IMG/VR virus record: IMGVR_UViG_3300010157_000068
Coordinates: 1 to 60,628 of that record
Length of the DNA stretch: 60,628 nucleotides
Reading direction: 5' to 3' (one strand)
Source of the DNA: a virus
Lineage: Duplodnaviria > Caudoviricetes
Made by a program: the position numbers and the translations under genes
Part shown: positions 28,501-58,194 of the stretch, piece after piece
Position numbering within the stretch: the first letter of the stretch is position 1
How the letters are laid out: every line of letters starts with the position of its first letter
The notes under the pieces: generated by a model
What the model was told of the DNA's origin: nothing
What the model saw: the letters and a program-made list of their open reading frames with translations, nothing else
Database searches by the model: none

Positions 28501-31500
28501 ATGTATTATCCTGCCGAGAACGCTACTGAGCATATGGTAAAGGGAAACATGCACATGGTAAAGGTTCCGGAGGCTGAGGTGTATGATTTTAATTCAGATC
28601 CTTTAAACTTAATAGAAGAGGCTAGAAAAAGATTTGAAGAAGAACATCCTAATCTTCCATTTACGCCTAACGATCAGTTTGCTCAGGTTACTAAAATAGC
28701 TAATGAGAAGGGATACAAGATGGTTGTTGGTGAATGGAATGGTGGTACTAGAGCTCAAACGACGGAGGCAATGAATCCTATTGACGTTAAAGAAATGAGT
28801 GGAGACACTATCGTTAAACCATTTCAAGAACAGCTTACTAGCAATAAGGATAAGGGATATAAATCTGTTATTCCAGAGGCTAAAGAGGCTAGACTAAAAG
28901 CGGTTTATGATGAGATTCATAACGAAAGAAACAAGCAAAATAAGTACGACTCCTTGTATCATTTAGCAGCAAGTGACTTATCAAAAATGCCTCAGGAGGA
29001 GATAACTAAAATGATTGAGGAGTCAGACCTTTCTCAAGAGACTAAAGATAAGTACGCTGAGGCTCTTAAGTATGAGCCGGAGCAGAGAAGATCAGAGGCC
29101 CCTAAGGAGCCAGAATCTGTAGAGCACAACGGAATAAAATACACAAAAAACGAGAACGGGAACTGGGTTAATGAGAAGACGGGTAATGAAGTAAAAGGAA
29201 TAGGTGATAAAGGGAAGGAGCTTGTAAAAACTCTTGACGGACTTGTAGAGCCTAAATATGAAAGGACTGATAATGTAAAGATAGAAGGAGCTCCAGAAGG
29301 AAACTATGTAAACATAGGTATGAACATTGGGACCACAGATGAGGTGATGTCTGAACAAGAAATAGAATCCATGCTTCCAGAAGATGTAGATGTTGTAGAG
29401 AAGGACGTTAAGGAGGTAAAAAGCGTTTTGGATGGAAAAGAAAACGTAGAGAAGACTATGTCATTAAGGCTGTCTAGGCCACTTACTGATACCGAGATGA
29501 AGAAGCTCTTGAAAGATACTAAGCAAAAAGCTATTCCTCAGATGGTAGAAGGTGAAGGAGCTATGCATGGTACTAAAGAGTGGGGAGATTTTAATCCTGA
29601 ATACTTCCACATGCCTGACGGAAAACTTCTTTCTGAAAAATTAGCTAAGCCTGCAGAGGTAAAAGAATCTACAAAAAGTAAGTTGGAAGCTTTTAAGCAA
29701 AAACATATAAATAAGCCAGTGTTTGATAAGGAGAAATTAAAATCTCAAGTTGAAAACGCTAAGAAATCTATTGCTAAAATACTGCCTAATGTTAAGATAG
29801 TGGTTCATGATAATCCTGATTCATTTATACTAGAGACAGGTAAAAATGCGAGTGGATTTTACGAAACAGAGACTGGAACTATACATATTAATGCGTCTAG
29901 AGCTAACGCTAGAACAGTCGCACATGAGGTTTTTCATGCAGTACTTTTTGAAAAGTTAAAAACAGAGTCTAGTGTGAGAGACTTGACTAAAAAAATGGTC
30001 TCTGCAATATCAAGAACTCTTGACTCTAATCCTGAATTAAAAAAACAACTTGATGATTTTATATCTGATTACGATAGCAATGTTCATAACGAAGAGAAAA
30101 TGTCTGAGCTTTTTGGGCATCTTGTTGATGGATATGAAGGATTCGATGCTACAGCTAAATCATTAGTCAAGAAATTCATAGATCGAATAGCTACTATGTT
30201 TGGATTAAAGCCATTCACAGAGGGAGACGTAGTGGATATGCTTAAGACTATTGCCGGAAAAGTTTCTACTGGAGAAGAAATAGTTAGTAAGGATGTGAAA
30301 ATAATCAAACCTGCTAAAATAGATATTAAGGGTAATTTAGAAAAACCTAGTATAAAATCTAAAGATAACTTAGAGTCTAAAAAATATCAATTAACTGAAG
30401 ATACTAAATCAGAGGTTAAAAAAGGAAGTATTGTAAGTACTAGAACTCCTGATATTGAAGGAGTACATAAGACTAATAATAATATTGTAGATTTAAAATC
30501 ATTAGAAAAAGATGATGCATTAGTTATAAAAATAGCTAAAGAATTATCCAGTTATGGTCTATCAAAAATAGAAGAGGTAAATAATATTAATGATGCAAGA
30601 AATTTAATACAAGACTTTAAAAACTCTGTAAAGGATAATCTTAGGTTTTTACACGATAGTTTTGGAAAAGAAGTAAGAGATGTAGCTAAGTTATGGTATG
30701 ATGGAGCTAATAAAATATCTAATGAAATAGCTGATAAGTATAATTATTCAACAGATCAAGTTGCAGGAGTAATGGCTGTTCTTAGTCCTCAAATGGATTG
30801 GTTTAGAAACTTGTCTTTAGGTAAGAGGGTTATAGATATATATAAAAACCAACAAGATACATTGTTTGATTCTAAAATGAGGTCTTGGATTGAAAATTCT
30901 ACTAGCGGAACTGGTAAAAATAAAAAAGAATTATTCCCTAACTCAAAAGAAATTATTAAAAGAGTTGATGGTAAAAAATTATCAGAACTTGACATAAAAG
31001 ATAAAGCAATATTTATAAGATCTTATGACGAAGTGTATAATTCTAAAAACTATGAAAATATTTCTCCTAATGGAGAGGTTAATGGATTAGTTAGAAATTC
31101 AAATGGAAGTCCTGGTGCTTGTGGATGGGGAGCTTTTTCTACTATAGAAAAATCAATATCTATACTAGAAGATGGATCTATAGAAAATATATCTAAAAAC
31201 CTTGGTAATATGCACAAGGTTAGAAACTTTTTTAATAACATATCTGATCCTAGCGATCCTAATGCGGTAACTATAGATACGCATGCTGTAGCAGCTGGAT
31301 TAATGCTTCCATTATCTGGATCTTCAAAAGAAGTATTATATAATTTTGGAGGAGCTTCTAGTAAATCAACTGGATCTAAAGGATCATATCCTGTATATGC
31401 AGATGCTTATAGAGAACTAGCTAAAGAATTAGGAATACTACCTAGAGAGTTACAATCAATAACTTGGGAGGCTGTTAGAGGTTTATTCAAGGCTGATTTT

Positions 31501-42242: not shown

Positions 42243-42486
42243 ACCTTAAATATTTATACACCTTTGGCAGTACTGCCATGGCTAGTTCAACTTTCTTATA
42301 ATATACCTTACCAAGGTTCTCCCTGGATCGGTACTCTATTCCGGTCACTGAGTCGTAGTGCCGGTCCTTACCGCACGCGGTTATACCTCCCTTCCTGACC
42401 GCTATGTACGCCCCACCACCGAACGGTTTGACGTACACCTGCCAGTCATTCTGTACTGCCCATCTGAAGTCGTCTGGATCTATCAA
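42232..42486 (-). CDS. Hypothetical protein
   Basis: Coupled to the primase stop. Confidence 0.55.
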   Translation of the reverse strand: MIDPDDFRWAVQNDWQVYVKPFGGGAYIAVRKGGITACGKDRHYDSVTGIEYRSRENLGKVYYKKVELAMAVLPKVYKYLRYGK

Positions 42487-44885
42487 AATTTAAACTCTTC
42501 GTTATTATGTGTGTCACCCTCCTTAGTGATGAACTTGATCCACCGCCCGTTTCCGTCGCGTCCCTCAAGAGGAGTCACTCCGGTGACGTACACCCCGTAT
42601 GCTATTAGCCACTTGTAGAATAACGTCCTACTGATGGTCATCTTAGCCTTGGGTGCAAAGTCAGGGTTGTCCTGAATAAAGTCAAGGTACAGGTCCTGCT
42701 TGTATAGCAGCTCGTCTAGCCTCATCATCCCGTTATGAGAGTCTCCGCCGACCATCCCACACCACTCTATAAACTCGTGACAGGTCTCGGCAGATAGCTT
42801 ACGAACCTTAAGGTTCACAAACGTGCTCTTGATAAGTCCGGTGTCTAGGTAGGACTTCAGGTTATTCACAACGTAGTTATCGAACCTGCACCACTCCTCC
42901 TCATCCCAGTCATCGAACATCATCCGGCCGAACTCGACAAGCGGAGTGAACTCCTTGCTATAGAACTGCTTAAACTCTAGCTCCCACTTACGTCTCTCGA
43001 AAGAGTTACCCTTACCCCTAACGGCGTAGTTGGTGGTGATGATAATCTTTGGCGACTTTCTAAACGGAAGGTGGAACGCGTCCTTATTCTTCTTCTCAAC
43101 CGTAAGCCCCTCGGTAACAACACTGAACAACCTCTCGAAGTCGAAGTGCTTCTTAACGTCGTCAAAGGACAGGACCTGGGTACCTACGTTAACCGTCTGA
43201 TACGCGAAGGACTTGTCAAAGTTAAATGACTTTCCATCTATAAATATGGTCTTCTTGATCTTAGATATAGCTCTAACGAAGATACCCTTTCCGGTACCTC
43301 CCTCAGGGTTGTCGCTGATCACCTCGTCGTTTAAGATAATGGCCGGACAGTATGCAGGGTTCTTGTACCCGTGCATAAGGAACCCTATCGTGCTCTCCAT
43401 GGACTTGATCCTCTGGTCATCCTCTCCTGATATGTTGGATATAAAGGTCCTGAAGTCGCACTCGGTTACCTCGCATATCGCGAAGTCTCTGTCGATTACC
43501 TGCTCCTTCCATATGTACCCGTCAAGGTCTATGTAGTCTATAATGTCGACACGGTCCTTGGTCACCTTAACCGCACAGTTGTTATAGTACAGGTGAGCCG
43601 TATCGGCCGTATCTTCTACGAAGTACACATCTACAGATCCTAGCATGGATAGGAAGTCCTCCTTAAAGAACCTGGTCTTGTCGGCAAAGTAGTTGTACAC
43701 TGAAAGGTCATCCATGTCCTCAAGGTACGATAGCACGAAGTCCTTTATCTCGTCCTCTGAAGTGTTGTCTATCAGGTTGTTAGTAACCTTAACTAGGTTA
43801 AAACTCTTGCTGTTCTCAGGGTAGAACTTATAGAACCCGTTGTCCTCCAAGAACTCCTTGAATAGGTTATGCACTATACTTACGGCGCCCTTATCGTTCT
43901 TGGTCCAGAACCGCTTTGTGTCGCTATCAATCCTGTCCAGGACTGCGTCGATGACACCCTCCTCAATGTCAGTCATCTCCGCCTTGATCTGCTTGACCGT
44001 GGCGCCGTCCTTGACCTTCTTCTTTAGCTGAGAGACCCTAGCGGTGTCTTCGTAGTACTTGGTGCCGAACTTGCTCACGTGACTGTATGCGGAGTTGATG
44101 GTCATCTTAATCTCAGACATGGGGAAGTCCTTCTGCTCGAACTGACCTATGATGTACTCGGCAAGAGACTTGCTGATTCCGTAGTCGTTAAACGCGGCAG
44201 CCAATATGTACACGTTGTGGTTGCGCTCACCGTCAACCATTCCGTACTTGTTTGTCCACCACTTCATGAGTATGTCAACGATCCTGTTCTCGTTGGTTAT
44301 TGGAATGGTAGGGGCCTCACTTACCCTCTCAATCTCAACGAACTCCTCCTCGTGCATGCGGTCCCACAGCTTAGACTCCTTGTTGATGTAGATATCCTTG
44401 TCGTAAGACTCGTAGCATACCCTTGAGATATTCTTAGACGTGGTGTCAAAGTGAGGTGTGTTAAAGTAGTTCTGAAGCGCGTTGAAGTACTTGACGTGGT
44501 TGTCTACGTCCTGAGGTATCCTTACAAGGACCTTTAGACCGTCCCCGGATGGAGATACAAATACAGCGTACACGTACTCGTCGGCTGCAATAGTAGCCTT
44601 CTCTAACATCATCTGCTTCTTGCTAGAGTATCCGTCAAAGTCTAGACATATAAGGCCGCTGTGCTCGGCTATTGAGTTGTCTAGTCTCTTGGTAAATATT
44701 CCTGAAAAGCATATGGCCGGCAGTGACTTTTTAATCTCGTTGCGCTCGGTCTTATCAGTCTCGGCCTGTATGCGCTCCACTATCTCTCGGCTCGCTCCGA
44801 TTCGTATGCGCTCCAGGACCACGTCTATGTTCCTATAGAACGGGGTGGAGGTGCTACGAATGTCCTTAAATATTGTTATCTTCAT
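42483..44885 (-). CDS. Primase-helicase (VirE-N/BT4734-like prim-pol domain, PriCT domain, SF3-like P-loop)
   Basis: KKSLPAICFSG..HSGLICLDFD..FVSPSGDGLK, GERN, EGGTGKG and SFDDV motifs. Confidence 0.85.
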   Translation of the reverse strand: MKITIFKDIRSTSTPFYRNIDVVLERIRIGASREIVERIQAETDKTERNEIKKSLPAICFSGIFTKRLDNSIAEHSGLICLDFDGYSSKKQMMLEKATIAADEYVYAVFVSPSGDGLKVLVRIPQDVDNHVKYFNALQNYFNTPHFDTTSKNISRVCYESYDKDIYINKESKLWDRMHEEEFVEIERVSEAPTIPITNENRIVDILMKWWTNKYGMVDGERNHNVYILAAAFNDYGISKSLAEYIIGQFEQKDFPMSEIKMTINSAYSHVSKFGTKYYEDTARVSQLKKKVKDGATVKQIKAEMTDIEEGVIDAVLDRIDSDTKRFWTKNDKGAVSIVHNLFKEFLEDNGFYKFYPENSKSFNLVKVTNNLIDNTSEDEIKDFVLSYLEDMDDLSVYNYFADKTRFFKEDFLSMLGSVDVYFVEDTADTAHLYYNNCAVKVTKDRVDIIDYIDLDGYIWKEQVIDRDFAICEVTECDFRTFISNISGEDDQRIKSMESTIGFLMHGYKNPAYCPAIILNDEVISDNPEGGTGKGIFVRAISKIKKTIFIDGKSFNFDKSFAYQTVNVGTQVLSFDDVKKHFDFERLFSVVTEGLTVEKKNKDAFHLPFRKSPKIIITTNYAVRGKGNSFERRKWELEFKQFYSKEFTPLVEFGRMMFDDWDEEEWCRFDNYVVNNLKSYLDTGLIKSTFVNLKVRKLSAETCHEFIEWCGMVGGDSHNGMMRLDELLYKQDLYLDFIQDNPDFAPKAKMTISRTLFYKWLIAYGVYVTGVTPLEGRDGNGRWIKFITKEGDTHNNEEFKF

Positions 44886-45986: not shown

Positions 45987-46050
45987 AATAAAATAATTTA
46001 ATGTTTCGCTTACTCTATTACACAGTTTTCAGCTACCCTGTTTATTTTAA

Positions 46051-51944: not shown

Positions 51945-53129
51945 CTAGTTTAATTGTTCTATTTTAAATTGTTCTGAAAGTTCCTTGCATAGGTCTTCGG
52001 CAAACTTGTAGTCAAGTTTTCGGAATCGATTCTGACCATAGTGAGGTATTGCCTTTTCTCCATCCGCGCATATAACGAATGGTACCTCTTCAATAAATAC
52101 GTTTCCCGATTCTCGGATGCCTTTTATTGTGTACATACTTCCTTTTACTAAGGACTTTGTTTTTGAGTAGTCTCCGACTGCGTCGCAAATACATACTACT
52201 TTTTCTCCTACTTTAAACATGATTATTTGTTTTGATTGTTATACCATCTGATGAATTTTACGCACGCGTTATAAACTGCATTAATTTTAATATCTGAGAA
52301 TTCAGATGACACGATACTGCTCTTAGTAACCAAGCACTGATAATCTCCGTCCTCTTGTTTGTTGATTTCGACTGAGTAATTTAGGTCCTCAATCTTCTCT
52401 ACCACATCCATTAACCAATTCCAATCTGAACTATACAAATCATCTTCCCATGACTGAGGGTTTTCGTGACCCATAAACTCAGCAATCATCTCGTTGTTCT
52501 CCTCGGTAGTAGGCTCTATGTATAGGCTCCGCTTGGCGCCCTCTAGAGTGCTATAGTCTTGGCTTTCGAATGACTCGTTTCCCTCCTGAATGACTTGTCT
52601 GTTGCCTTTTTTGTATACTACTGTGCGCATAATTCCCATGTGTTTAGTTTGGTTGAACGTGTTATCTCTAGGCGCTCGCATATGAACCGCGCCAACTTGT
52701 TGTTTACTGATTTTTGATCGATGCTCGGTGAGCCTATCACACTCACCACGTCGCGTGGCGACATGCCTAGTACCCGTGTGCAGAACTTGACGTCCTGACC
52801 TAGGTAGTAGATTCTGCCGTATGCCTCCAATGTCCAATCGTGTCCGAAGCCGTATGAGCCTCTTGTTATATTTACCTTCATAGCTGAGTGTATAAAATTT
52901 CTAACTCGTTCTTGTGCTCGTGGTTGTTGTCTATAGCGGACTGTACCGCCTTCTTCATGCTCGTTTGGTAGTCGTACTGCTCCCAAGTTCTGTTCAGGTA
53001 CCTTACGTGGCTAGTGCCAACATAGTTGTCGTTAATGTATAACGAACTAGCATGGACGAAGCCGTCACTCTTAGAACTGTAACTATTATCTAGTCTGTAC
53101 GTGTTGTTGTTTAATTTAAATTCTTTCAT
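51945..53129 (-). CDS. Four early hypothetical proteins (51945-52220, 52223-~52639, 52618-~52881, 52878-53129)
   Basis: Co-oriented ORFs, starts re-called to avoid long overlaps. Confidence 0.6.
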
Positions 53130-53325
53130 GTCAGAAATGTCGTTTTAGGGTTGCCCTACTCTACTATATATATTATTATATTATTATTATTTTATTTTAC
53201 TCTATAAAAGTAAGTAAAAATCAGAATACTAACATAGAATAGACTAAACCCTTATAAACAAAGGGCTCAGTCATGTGTCGTTTTCTAAAAAAATCGTCAG
53301 GCCATGTCAGATAATCGACACAAAC
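53128..53325 (+). repeat. Degenerate inverted repeat, copy A (origin-like)
   Basis: 53128-53147 is the reverse complement of 56242-56261 (20/20). 53216-53238 is the reverse complement of 56151-56173 (23/23). An AT-only tract lies between. Confidence 0.9.
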
Positions 53326-54773
53326 CTATACTTTTATGCGTCTGAATAGCTTCTCGTCGAACTTGTACGGCTCTCCCGTGTACCTTGGACTGAATGCTAT
53401 CGCGTCCATCACGTCTGTTGAGATGGCAATACTATCCTGAGTCATCTCCGATGCCAGGTTCTCGAAGTCGGTTAGGACCTTAGACTGCCTAGCGTACTTG
53501 TACTCGAACAGACCGACAAATGTCGGCTCTACGTTTCCTAGGTACTCCATATCTACGATTTGGAATCCCATCAGCCTATAGTTGCCTTCCGATGCCATCC
53601 TGTCTATTACTTCTGAAGCCGTGTAGGGGTTGTTGTTTAACCCGATGTTTACTTGTAGTGTTTTCATGCCTTTTTAATTTGAATGTTTAACGTTGGATAT
53701 TTTAATGAGAAGCTAGACGCGACCTCTAGGGTCTCGTCGTAAGAACTAAACCCGAATATTTTAGTCTCTTCTAGGTTGTCGTCAATTAGTACGACCTCGT
53801 AGTTATCTTCACTGTCCACGCTCTCTGTTACGTACAGAAAGTTGTTGTCCTTGGCTTGCTTTTCAAGCGCCTCATAGCACGCATCGTATGTTGCCTCGCT
53901 ATCAAAGATGGCTACCAATTCAGCGTAGCCATCCGTCTCAAAGTATACTCTTACCATAATAATTAGAATGTGCCCTCTGTGGGCGGTTTGTGGTTATCAA
54001 TCATCTCCTTTAGTCTCTCTATGGTGCCCGATTGGGCAATGACCTTGCCCCTCTCGTACCTATAGTTGGTGTGCTTGTTGCCCTTGTAGTCTGTACGTTC
54101 AAACTCTGTAACGTACCTCATAAATTCTGTGTAGTCCATACCTATTCTATTTCAGTTAGTACCCCGTCTACCTCCTCGTATTGGTAGTCATCCTCGTCCT
54201 CCCACTCTGTGTAGTAGCACTCTTCGTTGTCGTTGTCCTCCCACTCTGCCTCAAACATCTGCTCGAAGTCATCGTATCCGTTAAATGCAGCGACCTCGTC
54301 TGCCATCGATTGCTCGGAGTAGTACTCACCAAATATGTACCACCCCTTGTTCATTCCCTTGCCCGAAAACGAGCACTTTCTTGCGTACTTCATAATTTTA
54401 GTATTAGTTGATTTGATTTGTATATCATCGCAGTGAGTATGCCTCTAACGTTAGGCACAAAGAAGTTATCCTTGACCACCTTGTTAAGTTCTCTTTTCAC
54501 TACTAGTCTCTCCCATATAGTTTGAAAAGAAGCCAAGGGGTCTATGCAGTCCCAAAGACCGTTCGCGCTTATGTATTCCCTAGCTTCCTTGTATGTTGAG
54601 TAAGGACCCTCGTGTAACGCTAGGCGTACCTCGAAGTCGTGAGTAGACATACCTAATTCCTTAGCTACAATCTCTGTAGCTTTGTATATCAATTCCTGAG
54701 TCTCGTCAGAGTAGAACCTACCCTCGCTTTGCAGTCTGTCTAAGACATCTTCTACTATTTTTAGTGCTCTCAT
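53326..54773 (-). CDS. Five earliest small proteins (53326-53667, 53664-53957, 53963-54139, 54142-54393, 54390-54773)
   Basis: Coupled ORFs downstream of the early promoter. Two are strongly acidic. Confidence 0.65.
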
Positions 54774-54949
54774 CTTATATCTTTGTTAAATACGTAAATC
54801 ATTACCGCGCTTAGTACCATAATCATCTCTAACCACCCCACAAGGATGATGTTAATGATACTTTTGTCAGGCATCTCAATGCCCAACTTGATTACAAGGA
54901 TGGCGCCTAGTATAAACACCACCATTAGTAGTTTGTCTGTTGTCTTCAT
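54770..54949 (-). CDS. 59-aa two-TM membrane protein, first ORF of the early operon
   Basis: Manually translated MKTTDKLLMVVFILGAILVIKLG...IYVFNKDIR*, with an ATGA overlap to the next gene. Confidence 0.7.
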   Translation of the reverse strand: MKTTDKLLMVVFILGAILVIKLGIEMPDKSIINIILVGWLEMIMVLSAVMIYVFNKDIR

Positions 54950-54966
54950 AACTATAATGTTTTAAG

Positions 54967-55021
54967 TAACTGTTTCGTCATTTGTGACTCATCAGTCAGG
55001 GCACACACCCTGATACAGTTA
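54967..55021 (-). ncRNA. Type III hammerhead ribozyme
   Basis: Minus strand reads UAACUG-UA^-UCAGGG-UGUGUG-CCCUGA-CUGAUGA-GUCA-CAAA-UGAC-GAAA-CAGUUA. The catalytic core is complete and all three stems pair perfectly. Confidence 0.95.
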
Positions 55022-55280
55022 ACGACCTATGCCTATGTAGTTGGCAGTATCGTAGCTTCGGACCTAAAGGATTACTTTGACCTCTTATTCCTGAGTAGCT
55101 ACACCCGATGTTATAGTCTGTTCTGACTGCCTCCACTTTATAGGTCTGTGGTACCGACCGAGTTAATGACTGCCTTACTCCGCAGTGGTGATTCTTTTGA
55201 CTAGCACAGTGAACCACCTAAACTATATCGACTTTTTCTTTGGAGTCGTGAACCGTGAGAAGAACGTTGTCCCTTTTGAC
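55014..55280 (-). ncRNA. Candidate ~265-nt structured RNA released by the hammerhead
   Basis: Lies between a TAnnTTTG promoter and the cleavage site, with at least seven nested helices. Confidence 0.55.
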
Positions 55281-55284
55281 ACTG

Positions 55285-55292
55285 CAAACATA
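55285..55292 (-). promoter_or_regulatory. Early promoter -7 element TATGTTTG
   Basis: CAAACATA on the + strand, at the head of the entire minus-strand arm. Confidence 0.65.
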
Positions 55293-56059
55293 TGGCGAGT
55301 GTTTCAGTTGACCTAGAAAAAAATGATAAATCCGATTAAGTGCACAGTTTTATCGATTAAATGCACATCTGATAGAGTAGATTCCTACAAATCGTGTAGA
55401 TATTACTGCTCACAATATGTAACTGATTGATAACGAGATAGTTAATATGTATAGTAACTTTGCATATATAGAACGCGTGTGCGTAGGTGACTAACGGGTG
55501 TTAGTTAACTTGCCATCTGTAAGCCTTTAAGCGCTTTTTTCTTACAATTCAATAACAAAACCCTACATATAATACGAATTTCGCATTTTAAAGCTATTTA
55601 AGCGACGATTATGTAATCAGAGGTAGTTAGATACCACCTACCCAGAGATAGTGTCTTAATCGCAAATCCCCAATGAATACGCGGGCTCACGTCGTAGGAA
55701 TATACTGCAGTATAGTTGCAGACTATCAGGCCTTGGCTGCTCCATAGATCTCTGTTATAGTTTACTCTTACCCGTTTGTTGTCGGCTATCCGTTTACAAA
55801 TGGATATCACCGTATCGCATATCGCGATATGAAATGCAGAAGACTTGCCATCGTAATGTCAAACGTGCACGTCACAAGCTATCAGATAGGGGATGGAAAA
55901 AGCTAAAAAATCTGAAAGAAATTTCTGAAAATGTGACCCCGGGGGTGAAATAAAAGCGACTTTCGGATGAGGCATGCCGACGTGAAACCTATATATAACC
56001 CAAACACCATACATTTCTAACATATTTTTTTTAGCTCATCCCTTGCTATCAGAGGGCTA

Positions 56060-56261
56060 CGTCGATTTTTGATGCCTTGTGTCGATTTTGTGTCGATTTT
56101 TTTTAAAGTTGTCATGAGATAATTATTTGACTATCAAGTAGTTAGCTATCTCTATGTTAGTATTCTGATTTTTTTCCTATTTTATAGAAGAAAAAAAATA
56201 AATATATATATATAATTATATATAGAGAGAGTAGGGAGATGTAAAACGACATTTCTGACAT
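56060..56261 (-). repeat. Degenerate inverted repeat, copy B, with GTCGATTTT iteron-like repeats
   Basis: Reverse complement of 53128-53325. GTCGATTTT occurs three times at about 56061-56100. Confidence 0.9.
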
Positions 56262-56305
56262 ACAACTATTTTTAATAGTTGTGAATCATATATATAAAAA
56301 AACCA

Positions 56306-56313
56306 TATATTTG
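56306..56313 (+). promoter_or_regulatory. -7 promoter element TATATTTG for groEL
   Basis: Consensus match upstream of the ATG at 56348. Confidence 0.65.
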
Positions 56314-56347
56314 CCCCATACAATAATTAAATTAAATTTTTTTTATA

Positions 56348-57931
56348 ATGAGCAACGAATTATTTTTTAAAGAAGAGGGCCGTCAGAAACTTGTAGATGG
56401 TATCACAAAGATCAGCAGCGCTGTAAAGAGCACCCTAGGCCCTAGGGGGAAGACTGTGCTTATCGAATCACAGAACCACGTGCACGGTATAACTGTGACA
56501 AAGGATGGTGTAACTGTGGCTAAATCAATAACACTTGAGGACCCGGTAGAGAACCTGGCTGTAAAGATGATGAAGGAGGCTGCGGACCGTACGGCGACAA
56601 GCGCAGGAGATGGTACAACAACCGCAATTGTTCTAACAGAGGCAATAGTAAACAAGGGGACCGAGTTTATAACCAGTAGAAATAATCCTACCATGGTCCT
56701 TAGGGAGGTGAACACGATCGTGGACGGCGTTGTAAAGACACTTGAGAAGAAGTCAAAGAAGGTCAGAGGAAAGACCCTAAGAGATGTCGCGTCTATATCC
56801 GCAAACAATGACAAGGAGATAGGGGATATTATCGCTGACGCGTACTCAAAGGTTGGCAAGGACGGCGTTGTGACTGTTGATGACTCCCAGGACGAGAACA
56901 CATACGGAGAGGTGACAAACGGAATCCGGGTGGATAAGGGGTACACGAGCAGGCTATTTGTGAACGACATGAAGAAGGAGGAGTGCATACTAGACAACGT
57001 GTACGTGATGGTCACAGACCAGGAGATAAATAACATGATGTCTATAGAGAACGTCCTAAAGCCGATAGTTCAGGACAAGAAGAAGCTCCTTATAATTGGC
57101 CCGTGTACAAACAACATGATCAACACACTAGCCGCGAACGTAATACATAACGACCTTAAGTTCTGTAACATTCCGCCCCCACAGTTTGGTTACAAGCAGC
57201 AGGAGCTGATGCAGGACATAGCCCTGGCACTTGGAGCCACGTACTTCAGCGAGCAGACCGGAGACGACCTTTCGCTAATGACGCCGGAACACCTGGGACT
57301 AGCCAAGAGAATTATAGTCGGAAGGGACTCTACAGTAATTGTAAGGAATGAGGACGCCAGCGAGGCCGTTAAGGAGAGAGTGGCACAGTTATGGGTTCAG
57401 CACGAGAACTCGTCTAAGAAGGGCGAAAAGGATGCGATTAAGGAGCGCATAGCCTCTCTATCTGGCGGAGTAGGAGTGATACACGTAGGAGGAGGATCGG
57501 GCGTGGAGCAGAAGGAGCGCAAGGACAGGGTCGACGACGCGGTCTGTGCTGTAAGGAGCGCGCTTGAGGAGGGGATCATACCAGGAGGAGGTGTGGCACT
57601 ATACAACGCGGCGTCTGACATCATAGCGTACGCTGACGATAACATGGAGCATATAAGTCACGACCAGTACACGGCGATGCAGATCGTTGGCTGGGCACTT
57701 CAGGCACCCCTGATTCAGATAATGGAGAACGCAGGGCTGGACGCCTACGCGATAATGGCCTCTATCAGCGAAGAAGGGCACGGGTACGATGTAAAGAACG
57801 AGTGCTACGGAGACATGATGGCCATGGGCGTTATTGACCCGTTAAAGGTTACCAAGAACGCTCTGAAGAACGCGACCAGCGTAGCCACGACAATACTTAG
57901 TACGAACGCGATAGTAACAATTAAACGATAG
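56348..57931 (+). CDS. groEL: Phage-encoded chaperonin GroEL
   Basis: TLGPRG, TKDGVTVAK, AGDGTTTA, DRVDDA, GIIPGGG and GVIDPLKV motifs. Confidence 0.97.
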   Translation: MSNELFFKEEGRQKLVDGITKISSAVKSTLGPRGKTVLIESQNHVHGITVTKDGVTVAKSITLEDPVENLAVKMMKEAADRTATSAGDGTTTAIVLTEAIVNKGTEFITSRNNPTMVLREVNTIVDGVVKTLEKKSKKVRGKTLRDVASISANNDKEIGDIIADAYSKVGKDGVVTVDDSQDENTYGEVTNGIRVDKGYTSRLFVNDMKKEECILDNVYVMVTDQEINNMMSIENVLKPIVQDKKKLLIIGPCTNNMINTLAANVIHNDLKFCNIPPPQFGYKQQELMQDIALALGATYFSEQTGDDLSLMTPEHLGLAKRIIVGRDSTVIVRNEDASEAVKERVAQLWVQHENSSKKGEKDAIKERIASLSGGVGVIHVGGGSGVEQKERKDRVDDAVCAVRSALEEGIIPGGGVALYNAASDIIAYADDNMEHISHDQYTAMQIVGWALQAPLIQIMENAGLDAYAIMASISEEGHGYDVKNECYGDMMAMGVIDPLKVTKNALKNATSVATTILSTNAIVTIKR

Positions 57932-57933
57932 AC

Positions 57934-58194
57934 ATGCAGCCAATAGGTAAATACATAGTGATAACTCCGATAGAGGAGCAGATAAAGTCGGACGTAACCG
58001 GACTGATAATGTCAGGTTCAGATGCCGCCAAGATGAGGTACAAGAAGGCCGAGATAGTAAGGGTTGGAACGGAGGTCACCGCTGTGAGTGATGGGCAGAC
58101 GATATACTACGACAAGAACGCTGGGTTCAGCATGGTGACACAGGCCGGTACGTACACGGTGATAATGGAGAGGGATGTTATTGTGATTATTTAA
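57934..58194 (+). CDS. groES: Co-chaperonin GroES
   Basis: MQPIGKYIVI...GLIM...AEIVRVG...VSDGQTIYY...IMERDV, directly after groEL. Confidence 0.85.
   Translation: MQPIGKYIVITPIEEQIKSDVTGLIMSGSDAAKMRYKKAEIVRVGTEVTAVSDGQTIYYDKNAGFSMVTQAGTYTVIMERDVIVII

Follow-up and report, generated by a model that had tools for sequence, protein, structure and literature searches.

The minus strand of IMGVR_UViG_3300010157_000068, a Caudoviricetes record of the IMG/VR collection, carries a type III hammerhead ribozyme at positions 54967-55021, shortly before the first open reading frame (ORF) of a long gene block. The window analysed here is this whole record, a complete virus record of 60,628 bases with a completeness rating of 100%. 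Core and stems of the ribozyme are conserved in related phages, where it keeps a narrow distance to start codons and follows a promoter-like box. Judged from the sequence, the copy in the window is a real and very probably active hammerhead. With a probability of about 70% it is a functional self-cleaving ribozyme in the 5' leader of the long minus-strand unit, presumably the early or replication unit of the phage, and its selected function would be the processing of the RNA ahead of the start codon.

The hammerhead motif and its conservation

In the window copy the core is complete (C3 U4 G5 A6 N7 G8 A9 at 54989-54995, G12 A13 A14 at 54974-54976), the N-U-H triplet has an H17 other than G and is joined by the A15.1-U16.1 pair, G54988 and C54977 form the 10.1-11.1 pair, and the topology is that of type III with loops closing stems I and II and stem III open (Table 1). 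A preliminary description of this DNA had listed these elements as an intact canonical hammerhead on the minus strand, and every one of them was read in the sequence where it had been placed. The cleavage site which it proposed between 55014 and 55013, 64 nucleotides (nt) before ATG 54949, agrees with the hammerhead rule. It had also named the Rfam model Hammerhead_3 (RF00008) as a check, and the outcome was divided: all 54 model positions align to 54967-55021 on the minus strand, but the score of 47.4 bits stays below the gathering score of 48.5. The expect value (E) of this match is 1.7e-9 in a search of 401 nt, 2.6e-7 in the whole window and 6.3e-11 per genome. Rfam and descriptor scans found this single hammerhead in the whole genome, and the three-helix fold is both the minimum free energy (MFE) structure and the centroid computed by RNAfold for a stretch of 71 nt.

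For comparison 80 loci from viral contigs, designated by L numbers, were fetched via their GroEL protein (56-81% identity), amounting to 831 kb in total; 20 of these loci have an upstream flank of GroEL shorter than 1.3 kb, too little to judge whether a hammerhead is present. A type III descriptor gave 32 matches in 29 of the 80 loci, all opposite to the GroEL strand, and none in three mononucleotide shuffles of the 831 kb. A covariance model built from the relatives, R1, matched 38 times at E <= 2.2e-9, once in the window (70.0 bits, E 4.9e-17) and 37 times in 33 of the 80 loci, always on the minus strand, and the next best match reached 21.5 bits. A search of viral contigs with an exact 24-nt core pattern gave no match, and a descriptor for the type II topology was discarded after two matches compared to one in shuffles.

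In an alignment of 26 distinct copies the 11 core positions and the pairs G10.1-C11.1 and A15.1-U16.1 are invariant in 26/26, N7 varies, and H17 is A or C throughout. Compensatory changes are found in 13 of the 17 stem pairs; 90% of the cells are paired as compared to 27-39% with slid partners, and the observed covariation score was reached by none of 500 shuffles. Pairing amounts to 98% in stem I, 100% in stem II, and 77% in stem III, the outer pairs of which are variable. An invariant core combined with compensatory changes in the stems argues for purifying selection on the hammerhead fold. A loop I starting with U and a loop II ending with A make up the usual tertiary contact of fast hammerheads. 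This feature, already pointed out in the preliminary description, recurs without exception in the 26 aligned copies (U55007 and A54981 in the window), which is consistent with such a contact.

With the type III hammerheads of RF00008 the window copy shares the full core, an A as H17, G10.1-C11.1, A15.1-U16.1, looped stems I and II and an open stem III. The differences are the score, 47.4 bits in the window and 41.1-45.7 bits in the type III copies of the relatives, all under 48.5, and the location in the operon leader of a double-stranded DNA phage, the seed of the Rfam family being viroid or satellite RNA hammerheads. As the whole clade scores just under the Rfam thresholds, its hammerheads are missed by routine annotation. 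Four of the R1 matches deviate at or next to the core, by mismatches at 10.1/11.1 in L012, L062, and L072 and by an additional nucleotide in L081 (Table 1), and may be slow or altered natural variants.

Genome position, promoter-like box and leader

The plus-strand genes begin with a phage GroEL (56348-57931; phrog_5725, E 1e-137), after which the structural genes follow, and the minus-strand block extends from 54949 down to about 34407 (about 20 kb) and includes a primase/helicase at 42483-44885. The sign of the GC skew flips at the same two borders as this block, and the gap between the divergent blocks (54950-56347) is poor in ORFs. Small ORFs followed by a primase/helicase suggest that the minus-strand block is an early one. 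The preliminary description had put the ribozyme at the head of this block, which is where it stands: 17 nt separate its end from ATG 54949, the start of the first ORF of the block, and a conserved promoter-like box lies 271 nt upstream of it. Among 35 distinct type III copies, 32 are followed by an ORF starting with ATG at a median gap of 12 nt, and 30 of these 32 gaps measure 5-24 nt. The first ORF of the window had no tblastn match in the 80 loci and no PHROG match, and for the second gene tblastn found a homolog in L004 only; the conserved head therefore precedes variable small genes.

The nearest protein relatives of the virus are phages of Flavobacterium and other Bacteroidota, which makes a host from the Bacteroidota most likely. 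The closest named one is MW202828.1, an uncultured freshwater Caudoviricetes (GroEL 56%, primase/helicase 61%), other close ones are Flavobacterium podophages of the genus Elemovirus, and further protein matches lead to phages of Cellulophaga, Polaribacter, Maribacter, Tenacibaculum, and Bacteroides. No match was obtained by megablast of 53000-57000 against isolated phages. The start codons lack a Shine-Dalgarno sequence upstream, in agreement with such a host.

The promoter-like box, TATGTTTG at 55292-55285, is of the Bacteroidota sigma-A type. An extended form, TATGTTTGCRGTG, occurs exactly once and on this strand only in the window and in 19 of the 80 loci. Where a type III copy accompanies it, which is the case in the window and in 16 loci, it stands 129-303 nt upstream of that copy. 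In aligned contexts a -33-like element, TTTG or TTAG, precedes the box by about 21 nt. Bacteroidota sigma-A promoters have been described with TTTG at -33 and TAnnTTTG at -7 (PMC6847099, PMC9723704), and the flavobacterial -7 box spans -12 to -5 (PMC9723704). As the box was placed at -12 to -5 in the same manner, a transcription start is predicted near 55280, with a leader of about 265 nt. A scan for sigma-70-type promoters and terminators over 54700-56500 (four promoter-like sites, shuffle mean 6.3) was discarded, this being the wrong model for a Bacteroidota host.

The hammerhead is directly adjoined by a domain of 133 nt which is kept even in loci with a GroEL of only about 69% identity; the preceding part, 55155-55280, is conserved in L012 only, at about 80% DNA identity. 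RNAalifold on a MAFFT alignment of the leaders gave 12 pairs only, with misaligned short helices, and a covariance model, R2, was built instead from five compact leader versions. R2 finds 15 copies in the window and the 80 loci, each adjoining a type III hammerhead, and scores the window with 52.8 bits (E 7.9e-8). In the alignment of the 15 copies 18 of 20 pairs show compensatory changes and 92% of the cells are paired compared to 27-40% with slid partners, pair counts which are inflated towards structure by fitting the alignment to the model. No Rfam family matched the domain at E <= 10 in a local search or at E <= 1 in the whole window. Unrelated leaders precede the same hammerhead in other relatives, for example in L016, L017, L024, and L030. 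Upon cleavage the leader RNA, conserved, structured and about 265 nt long, would be detached. An ORF overlapping the ribozyme (55217-54996) was rejected as a gene; it starts with GTG, and its tblastn matches only reflect that the leader is conserved as DNA.

The module also occurs in a cultured phage. Flavobacterium phage vB_FspP_elemoE_10-3D (MT497078.1) has an unannotated type III hammerhead at 28912-28968 on the minus strand (R1 65.5 bits), which lies at a divergent junction, 13 nt before the first coding sequence of the minus-strand block; its predicted cleavage site falls between 28961 and 28960. Upstream of it are two TATATTTG boxes and a leader of the same class A as in the window (R2 55.9 bits, E 3.8e-10), which adjoins the hammerhead. 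Box, leader, ribozyme and ATG were read in this one elemo record, and the region is at least 99% identical across 68 elemo phage records, all on the host Flavobacterium sp. BAL314. R1 found no hammerhead in MW202828.1. The Rfam model RF00163 matched neither MW202828.1 nor MT497078.1, which is uninformative as the control genomes were also without match.

Some further features of the region were recorded. On the minus strand, further upstream than the promoter box, an ORF of 54 amino acids at 55859-56023 is possibly a genuine gene, its first approximately 42 residues being 45-58% identical in the 12 tblastn matches displayed, of 14, with distant loci included. At 56061-56100 (minus strand) in the divergent intergenic region three direct copies of AAAATCGAC stand within 40 nt and could be operator or iteron-like sites. 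The GroEL gene is followed on the plus strand by an 86-amino acid ORF (57934-58194), which could encode a co-chaperonin; the gene after groEL in MW202828.1 is annotated as a 10 kDa chaperonin subunit. Inside the same minus-strand unit as the ribozyme, Rfam reports a near-threshold match to the DUF805b RNA at 46007-46042 (35.3 bits, gathering score 35.6, E 2.8e-6), which ends about 16 nt before an ATG. ARAGORN detected neither a transfer RNA (tRNA) nor a transfer-messenger RNA in the whole window.

Type I hammerheads and tRNA-like minihelices in relatives

Downstream of the type III copies, between small early ORFs, a second kind of hammerhead was found in the relatives. These type I hammerheads amount to 32 copies in 23 loci with none in shuffles, and share the conserved stem I GGUUAA/UUAACC; the descriptor scan found none in the window. 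A 33rd descriptor match, in L004, turned out to be the type III copy read a second time and was not counted. One type I copy scored 31.9 bits in Rfam at a cut-off of 34. From the end of the copy to the next ATG the distance is 13-30 nt, with a median of 16, and in 27 of the 32 copies the upstream frame stops -10 to +7 nt from the 5' end of the ribozyme, often inside stem I. Altogether 40 of the 80 loci have at least one hammerhead, and arrays with type III first and type I after it are seen, for example, in L015, L017, L022, L025, L029, L030, L032, and L060. The type I copies are preceded by protein genes, as are the type III copies of L052, L060, and L073. In the type I topology the ribozyme body would stay on the upstream fragment and the downstream messenger RNA (mRNA) would start with about 22 unstructured nt. 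This is near the median 5' untranslated region (UTR) of F. psychrophilum, 24 nt (PMC9723704); in Flavobacterium, secondary structure and an A-rich sequence upstream modulate initiation (PMC6847099, PMC9723704).

Another finding was that in slots equivalent to those of hammerheads some relatives have a tRNA-like minihelix, consisting of a T-arm and an acceptor-like stem. A first descriptor proved to be too loose (33 real matches, 70 in three shuffles) and was replaced by a strict T-arm test. On the hammerhead strand 12 of 14 strict T-arms are followed by an ORF start 25-41 nt further on, as compared to none of eight in 10 shuffles. The 10 T-arms on the GroEL strand have no ORF start behind them, and Rfam identifies at least two, in L015, as ordinary tRNA genes. 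In L005 the promoter box is the same, but a minihelix follows it in place of a hammerhead. A scan of 19 loci with ARAGORN, among them L005, L040, L044, L063, L066, L071, and L076 but not L015, L016, L061, and L065, gave no tRNA, and Rfam at E <= 0.1 gave no match in L005, L006, and L011. As neither program calls tRNAs where tested, the minihelices are regarded as merely tRNA-like; they may be substrates of ribonuclease (RNase) P or RNase Z. Besides, in the group with about 69% identity the stretch between GroEL and the hammerhead is 3-4 kb long and poor in ORFs, and its GroEL strand contains tRNA genes as well as tRNA-like sequences.

Table 1. Coordinates of the features in the window and, where an L number is given, in the related loci.
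Feature	Position	Strand	Basis or remark
Type III hammerhead ribozyme	54967-55021	-	sequence, RF00008 alignment, model R1, covariation
Stem III (UAACUG/CAGUUA + U16.1-A15.1 pair)	55015-55021 with 54967-54973	-	sequence
GUA triplet	55016-55014	-	H17 = A55014; predicted cleavage 55014/55013
Stem I (UCAGGG/CCCUGA, loop UGUGUG)	55008-55013 with 54996-55001	-	sequence
Core CUGAUGA	54989-54995	-	sequence
Stem II (GUCA/UGAC, loop CAAA)	54985-54988 with 54977-54980	-	sequence
GAAA	54973-54976	-	sequence; GAA at 54974-54976
A/T-rich 17-nt spacer without Shine-Dalgarno sequence	54950-54966	-	sequence, ribozyme to start codon
First ORF after ribozyme, 59 amino acids, two hydrophobic stretches	54770-54949	-	ORF list
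Structured leader domain, class A, five to six short helices	55022-55154	-	model R2
Putative 5' part of leader, predicted start (~55280) to conserved domain	55155-55280	-	-7 box position
Promoter-like -7 box TATGTTTG, Bacteroidota sigma-A type TAnnTTTG	55285-55292	-	motif and aligned contexts
Type III hammerhead, U-U at 10.1/11.1	L012 638-692	-	R1 match
Type III hammerhead, A-A at 10.1/11.1	L062 219-271	-	R1 match
Type III hammerhead, A-A at 10.1/11.1	L072 1941-1995	-	R1 match
Type III hammerhead, extra U after A9	L081 1968-2025	-	R1 match
Type I hammerheads	L003, L013, L015-L017, L022, L024-L032, L036, L041, L043, L047, L061, L065, L067, L069	-	descriptor
tRNA-like minihelices	L005 3836-3870; L015 56-72; L016 187-203; L040 3364-3382	-	strict T-arm test
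tRNA-like minihelices	L044 2820-2838; L061 2251-2269; L063 1767-1785; L065 2043-2061	-	strict T-arm test
tRNA-like minihelices	L066 1953-1971 and 1694-1712; L071 1710-1728; L076 2663-2679	-	strict T-arm test
tRNA genes	L015 3897-3976 and 4103-4176	+	similar in L013, L016, L017, L021, L022, L024

Proposed RNA processing and alternative explanations

Transcription would start at about 55280 from the conserved promoter box of Bacteroidota type, and the nascent RNA would fold with the structured leader first and the hammerhead next. The hammerhead would then cut itself after A55014, freeing a leader RNA of about 265 nt which ends in a 2',3'-cyclic phosphate. The remaining mRNA would have a 5'-OH and begin with the ribozyme body of stems I and II, followed by the 17-nt spacer, the AUG being 64 nt away from the cut. 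Such processing would uncouple the cistron from upstream RNA and set a defined short translation-initiation region for a host which does without Shine-Dalgarno sequences, and the stability of the mRNA might also be affected. As either hammerhead topology or a tRNA-like element sits a short fixed distance before start codons, processing upstream of each cistron appears to be what is selected. A 5'-terminal hairpin which stabilises or hides the mRNA, the function suggested in the preliminary description, is plausible and may apply to the type III copy; it cannot be the common function, because type I and type III leave opposite ends structured. More tentatively, the Flavobacteriia podophages of this GroEL-encoding family possibly use a modular RNA punctuation, in which three interchangeable elements, namely type III hammerheads heading the operon, type I hammerheads separating cistrons, and minihelices, presumably cut by RNase P or RNase Z, would be cleaved 12-30 nt before start codons. 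Each mRNA would then carry one gene and a short, A-rich leader like those of the host, suited to translation without Shine-Dalgarno sequences, and at the operon head an undescribed structured leader RNA would be freed in addition, ending in a cyclic phosphate and serving its own function.

Comparable arrangements are on record. In the haloviruses HF1 and HF2 a hammerhead is located 13 nt before the first early ORF, and the 5' end of the mRNA has been mapped to the cleavage site (PMC3088659, 2011). The window resembles this arrangement of a ribozyme no more than about 20 nt ahead of the start codon that opens an early polycistronic unit, with a distance of 17 nt and a unit that is presumably early. 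The HF1/HF2 ribozyme is a core variant of an archaeal virus and needs high Mg2+ (PMC3088659), whereas the window ribozyme, known here from sequence, has a canonical core, belongs to a Bacteroidota phage and follows a conserved structured leader. Perreault et al. described hundreds of bacterial hammerheads near prophage genes in 2011; several of them flank single genes, with cleavage in vitro, and it was proposed that long phage transcripts are processed to single-gene mRNAs (PMC3088659). In the tandem arrays of C. scindens, A. caulinodans, and A. tumefaciens prophages the ribozymes lie between single genes or short blocks of varying identity, as they do in the relatives of the window; the window has one copy only and no array. 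The fixed distance of 12-30 nt to the ATG and the stop codon in stem I were measured here in these relatives. In ribozyme insulators of synthetic biology such as RiboJ, self-cleavage removes upstream RNA and creates a defined 5' end. Hammerheads in the 5' UTRs of RNA mycoviruses were reported in 2026, where cleavage is needed for translation initiation (PMC13725137). The removal of upstream RNA and the defined 5' end of the coding region would be common to these and the phage hammerheads, but the former are engineered or work in eukaryotic cap-independent translation and have no family relationship to the latter, which makes this an analogy only. A 2019 review considers the purpose of self-cleaving ribozymes in bacteria and phages to need more work (PMC6765202). 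Among titles and abstracts no paper on hammerheads in Flavobacterium phages was found, and Dataset S1 of PMC3088659, an alignment of all hammerheads of that study with metagenomic ones included, may already contain members of this clade. That phage hammerheads flank genes, and that one precedes a first early ORF, is known since 2011. Within the searched literature, supplements excluded, four points seem to be new: the occurrence in phages of this Flavobacteriia family, the spacing rule as measured, what looks like an exchange for tRNA-like elements, and the conserved leader RNA.

Several observations weigh against a functional ribozyme in the leader. The window copy lacks 1.1 bits to the RF00008 gathering score, and for this reason a default Rfam scan stays silent and only permissive scans report the match; the gathering score is a curation threshold and no biochemical feature. 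The folding energy of the 71 nt has a z value of only -1.87, with 10 of 200 shuffles folding equally well, and in the MFE structure of 231 nt stems I and II persist while the 5' strand of stem III is base-paired to the spacer ahead of the start codon instead, so that thermodynamics alone is not decisive. The low score and the energy would also suit a chance match to the hammerhead consensus, a negligible prospect refuted by the E of 2.6e-7 over the whole window, the absence of descriptor matches in shuffles, and the conservation with covariation across 33 related loci. The mismatches at 10.1/11.1 in L012, L062, and L072 may make cleavage slower. No hammerhead is present in three close relatives (L005, L006, L011) or in MW202828.1, the nearest record in GenBank, and the element is therefore dispensable or replaceable. 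The window box has a G at -9, which is atypical of host promoters and almost absent among F. johnsoniae promoters (PMC6847099), and its -33 element is weak. Transcription of the locus, cleavage in vivo and a benefit for the phage are deduced from the DNA. A remnant, neutral or selfish, which was passed on within a mobile cassette of promoter and leader and whose cleavage is lost or of no consequence, would explain the patchy presence (strong R1 matches in 33 of 80 loci, 20 of 80 being too short upstream of GroEL to judge) and the core-adjacent mismatches. It is made very improbable by a core invariant in 26/26 copies whose stems keep pairing by compensation, and by the tightly constrained distance to start codons.

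Two further explanations start from the leader. The ribozyme might mainly serve to mature the 3' end of the structured leader, which would then be a separate non-coding RNA, terminated by a 2',3'-cyclic phosphate and with its own role in infection, the effect on the mRNA being secondary. The domain ends exactly at the start of the hammerhead, has compensatory changes in 18/20 pairs, is retained in another genus, Elemovirus, and matches no Rfam family; all this would fit a separate RNA. The same hammerhead, however, stands behind unrelated leaders in L016, L017, L024, and L030, the type I copies and the type III copies in L052, L060, and L073 have a protein gene in front of them instead, R2 gives only 15 matches in the window and 80 loci, and the pair counts of its model-fitted alignment are inflated. 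This explanation, which is compatible with processing ahead of the start codon, is considered unlikely as an account of the main function. Less likely still is an allosteric ribozyme, in which the leader would sense a ligand, a protein or a condition and gate the folding of the hammerhead, making cleavage and early expression conditional. Regulated cleavage has been raised for phage hammerheads (PMC3088659), the structured domain with its conserved unpaired nucleotides abuts stem III with zero spacer, and an alternative pairing is predicted for the 5' strand of stem III in longer context. This pairing, as judged by eye, is not kept in the spacer of L039, no known aptamer family matches, and the hammerhead is found behind several unrelated leaders and behind ORFs. 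Processing ahead of the start codon by the type III hammerhead is preferred to all of these.

The phage family thus provides a clean comparative case, in which a ribozyme stands at a fixed distance from start codons after a conserved promoter box and a structured leader, and is apparently exchangeable with tRNA-like elements in relatives. As the same module occurs in a cultured Flavobacterium phage, and its region in 68 cultured phage records with a known, culturable host, the role of a natural phage hammerhead could be addressed directly by phage genetics and 5'-OH RNA sequencing.

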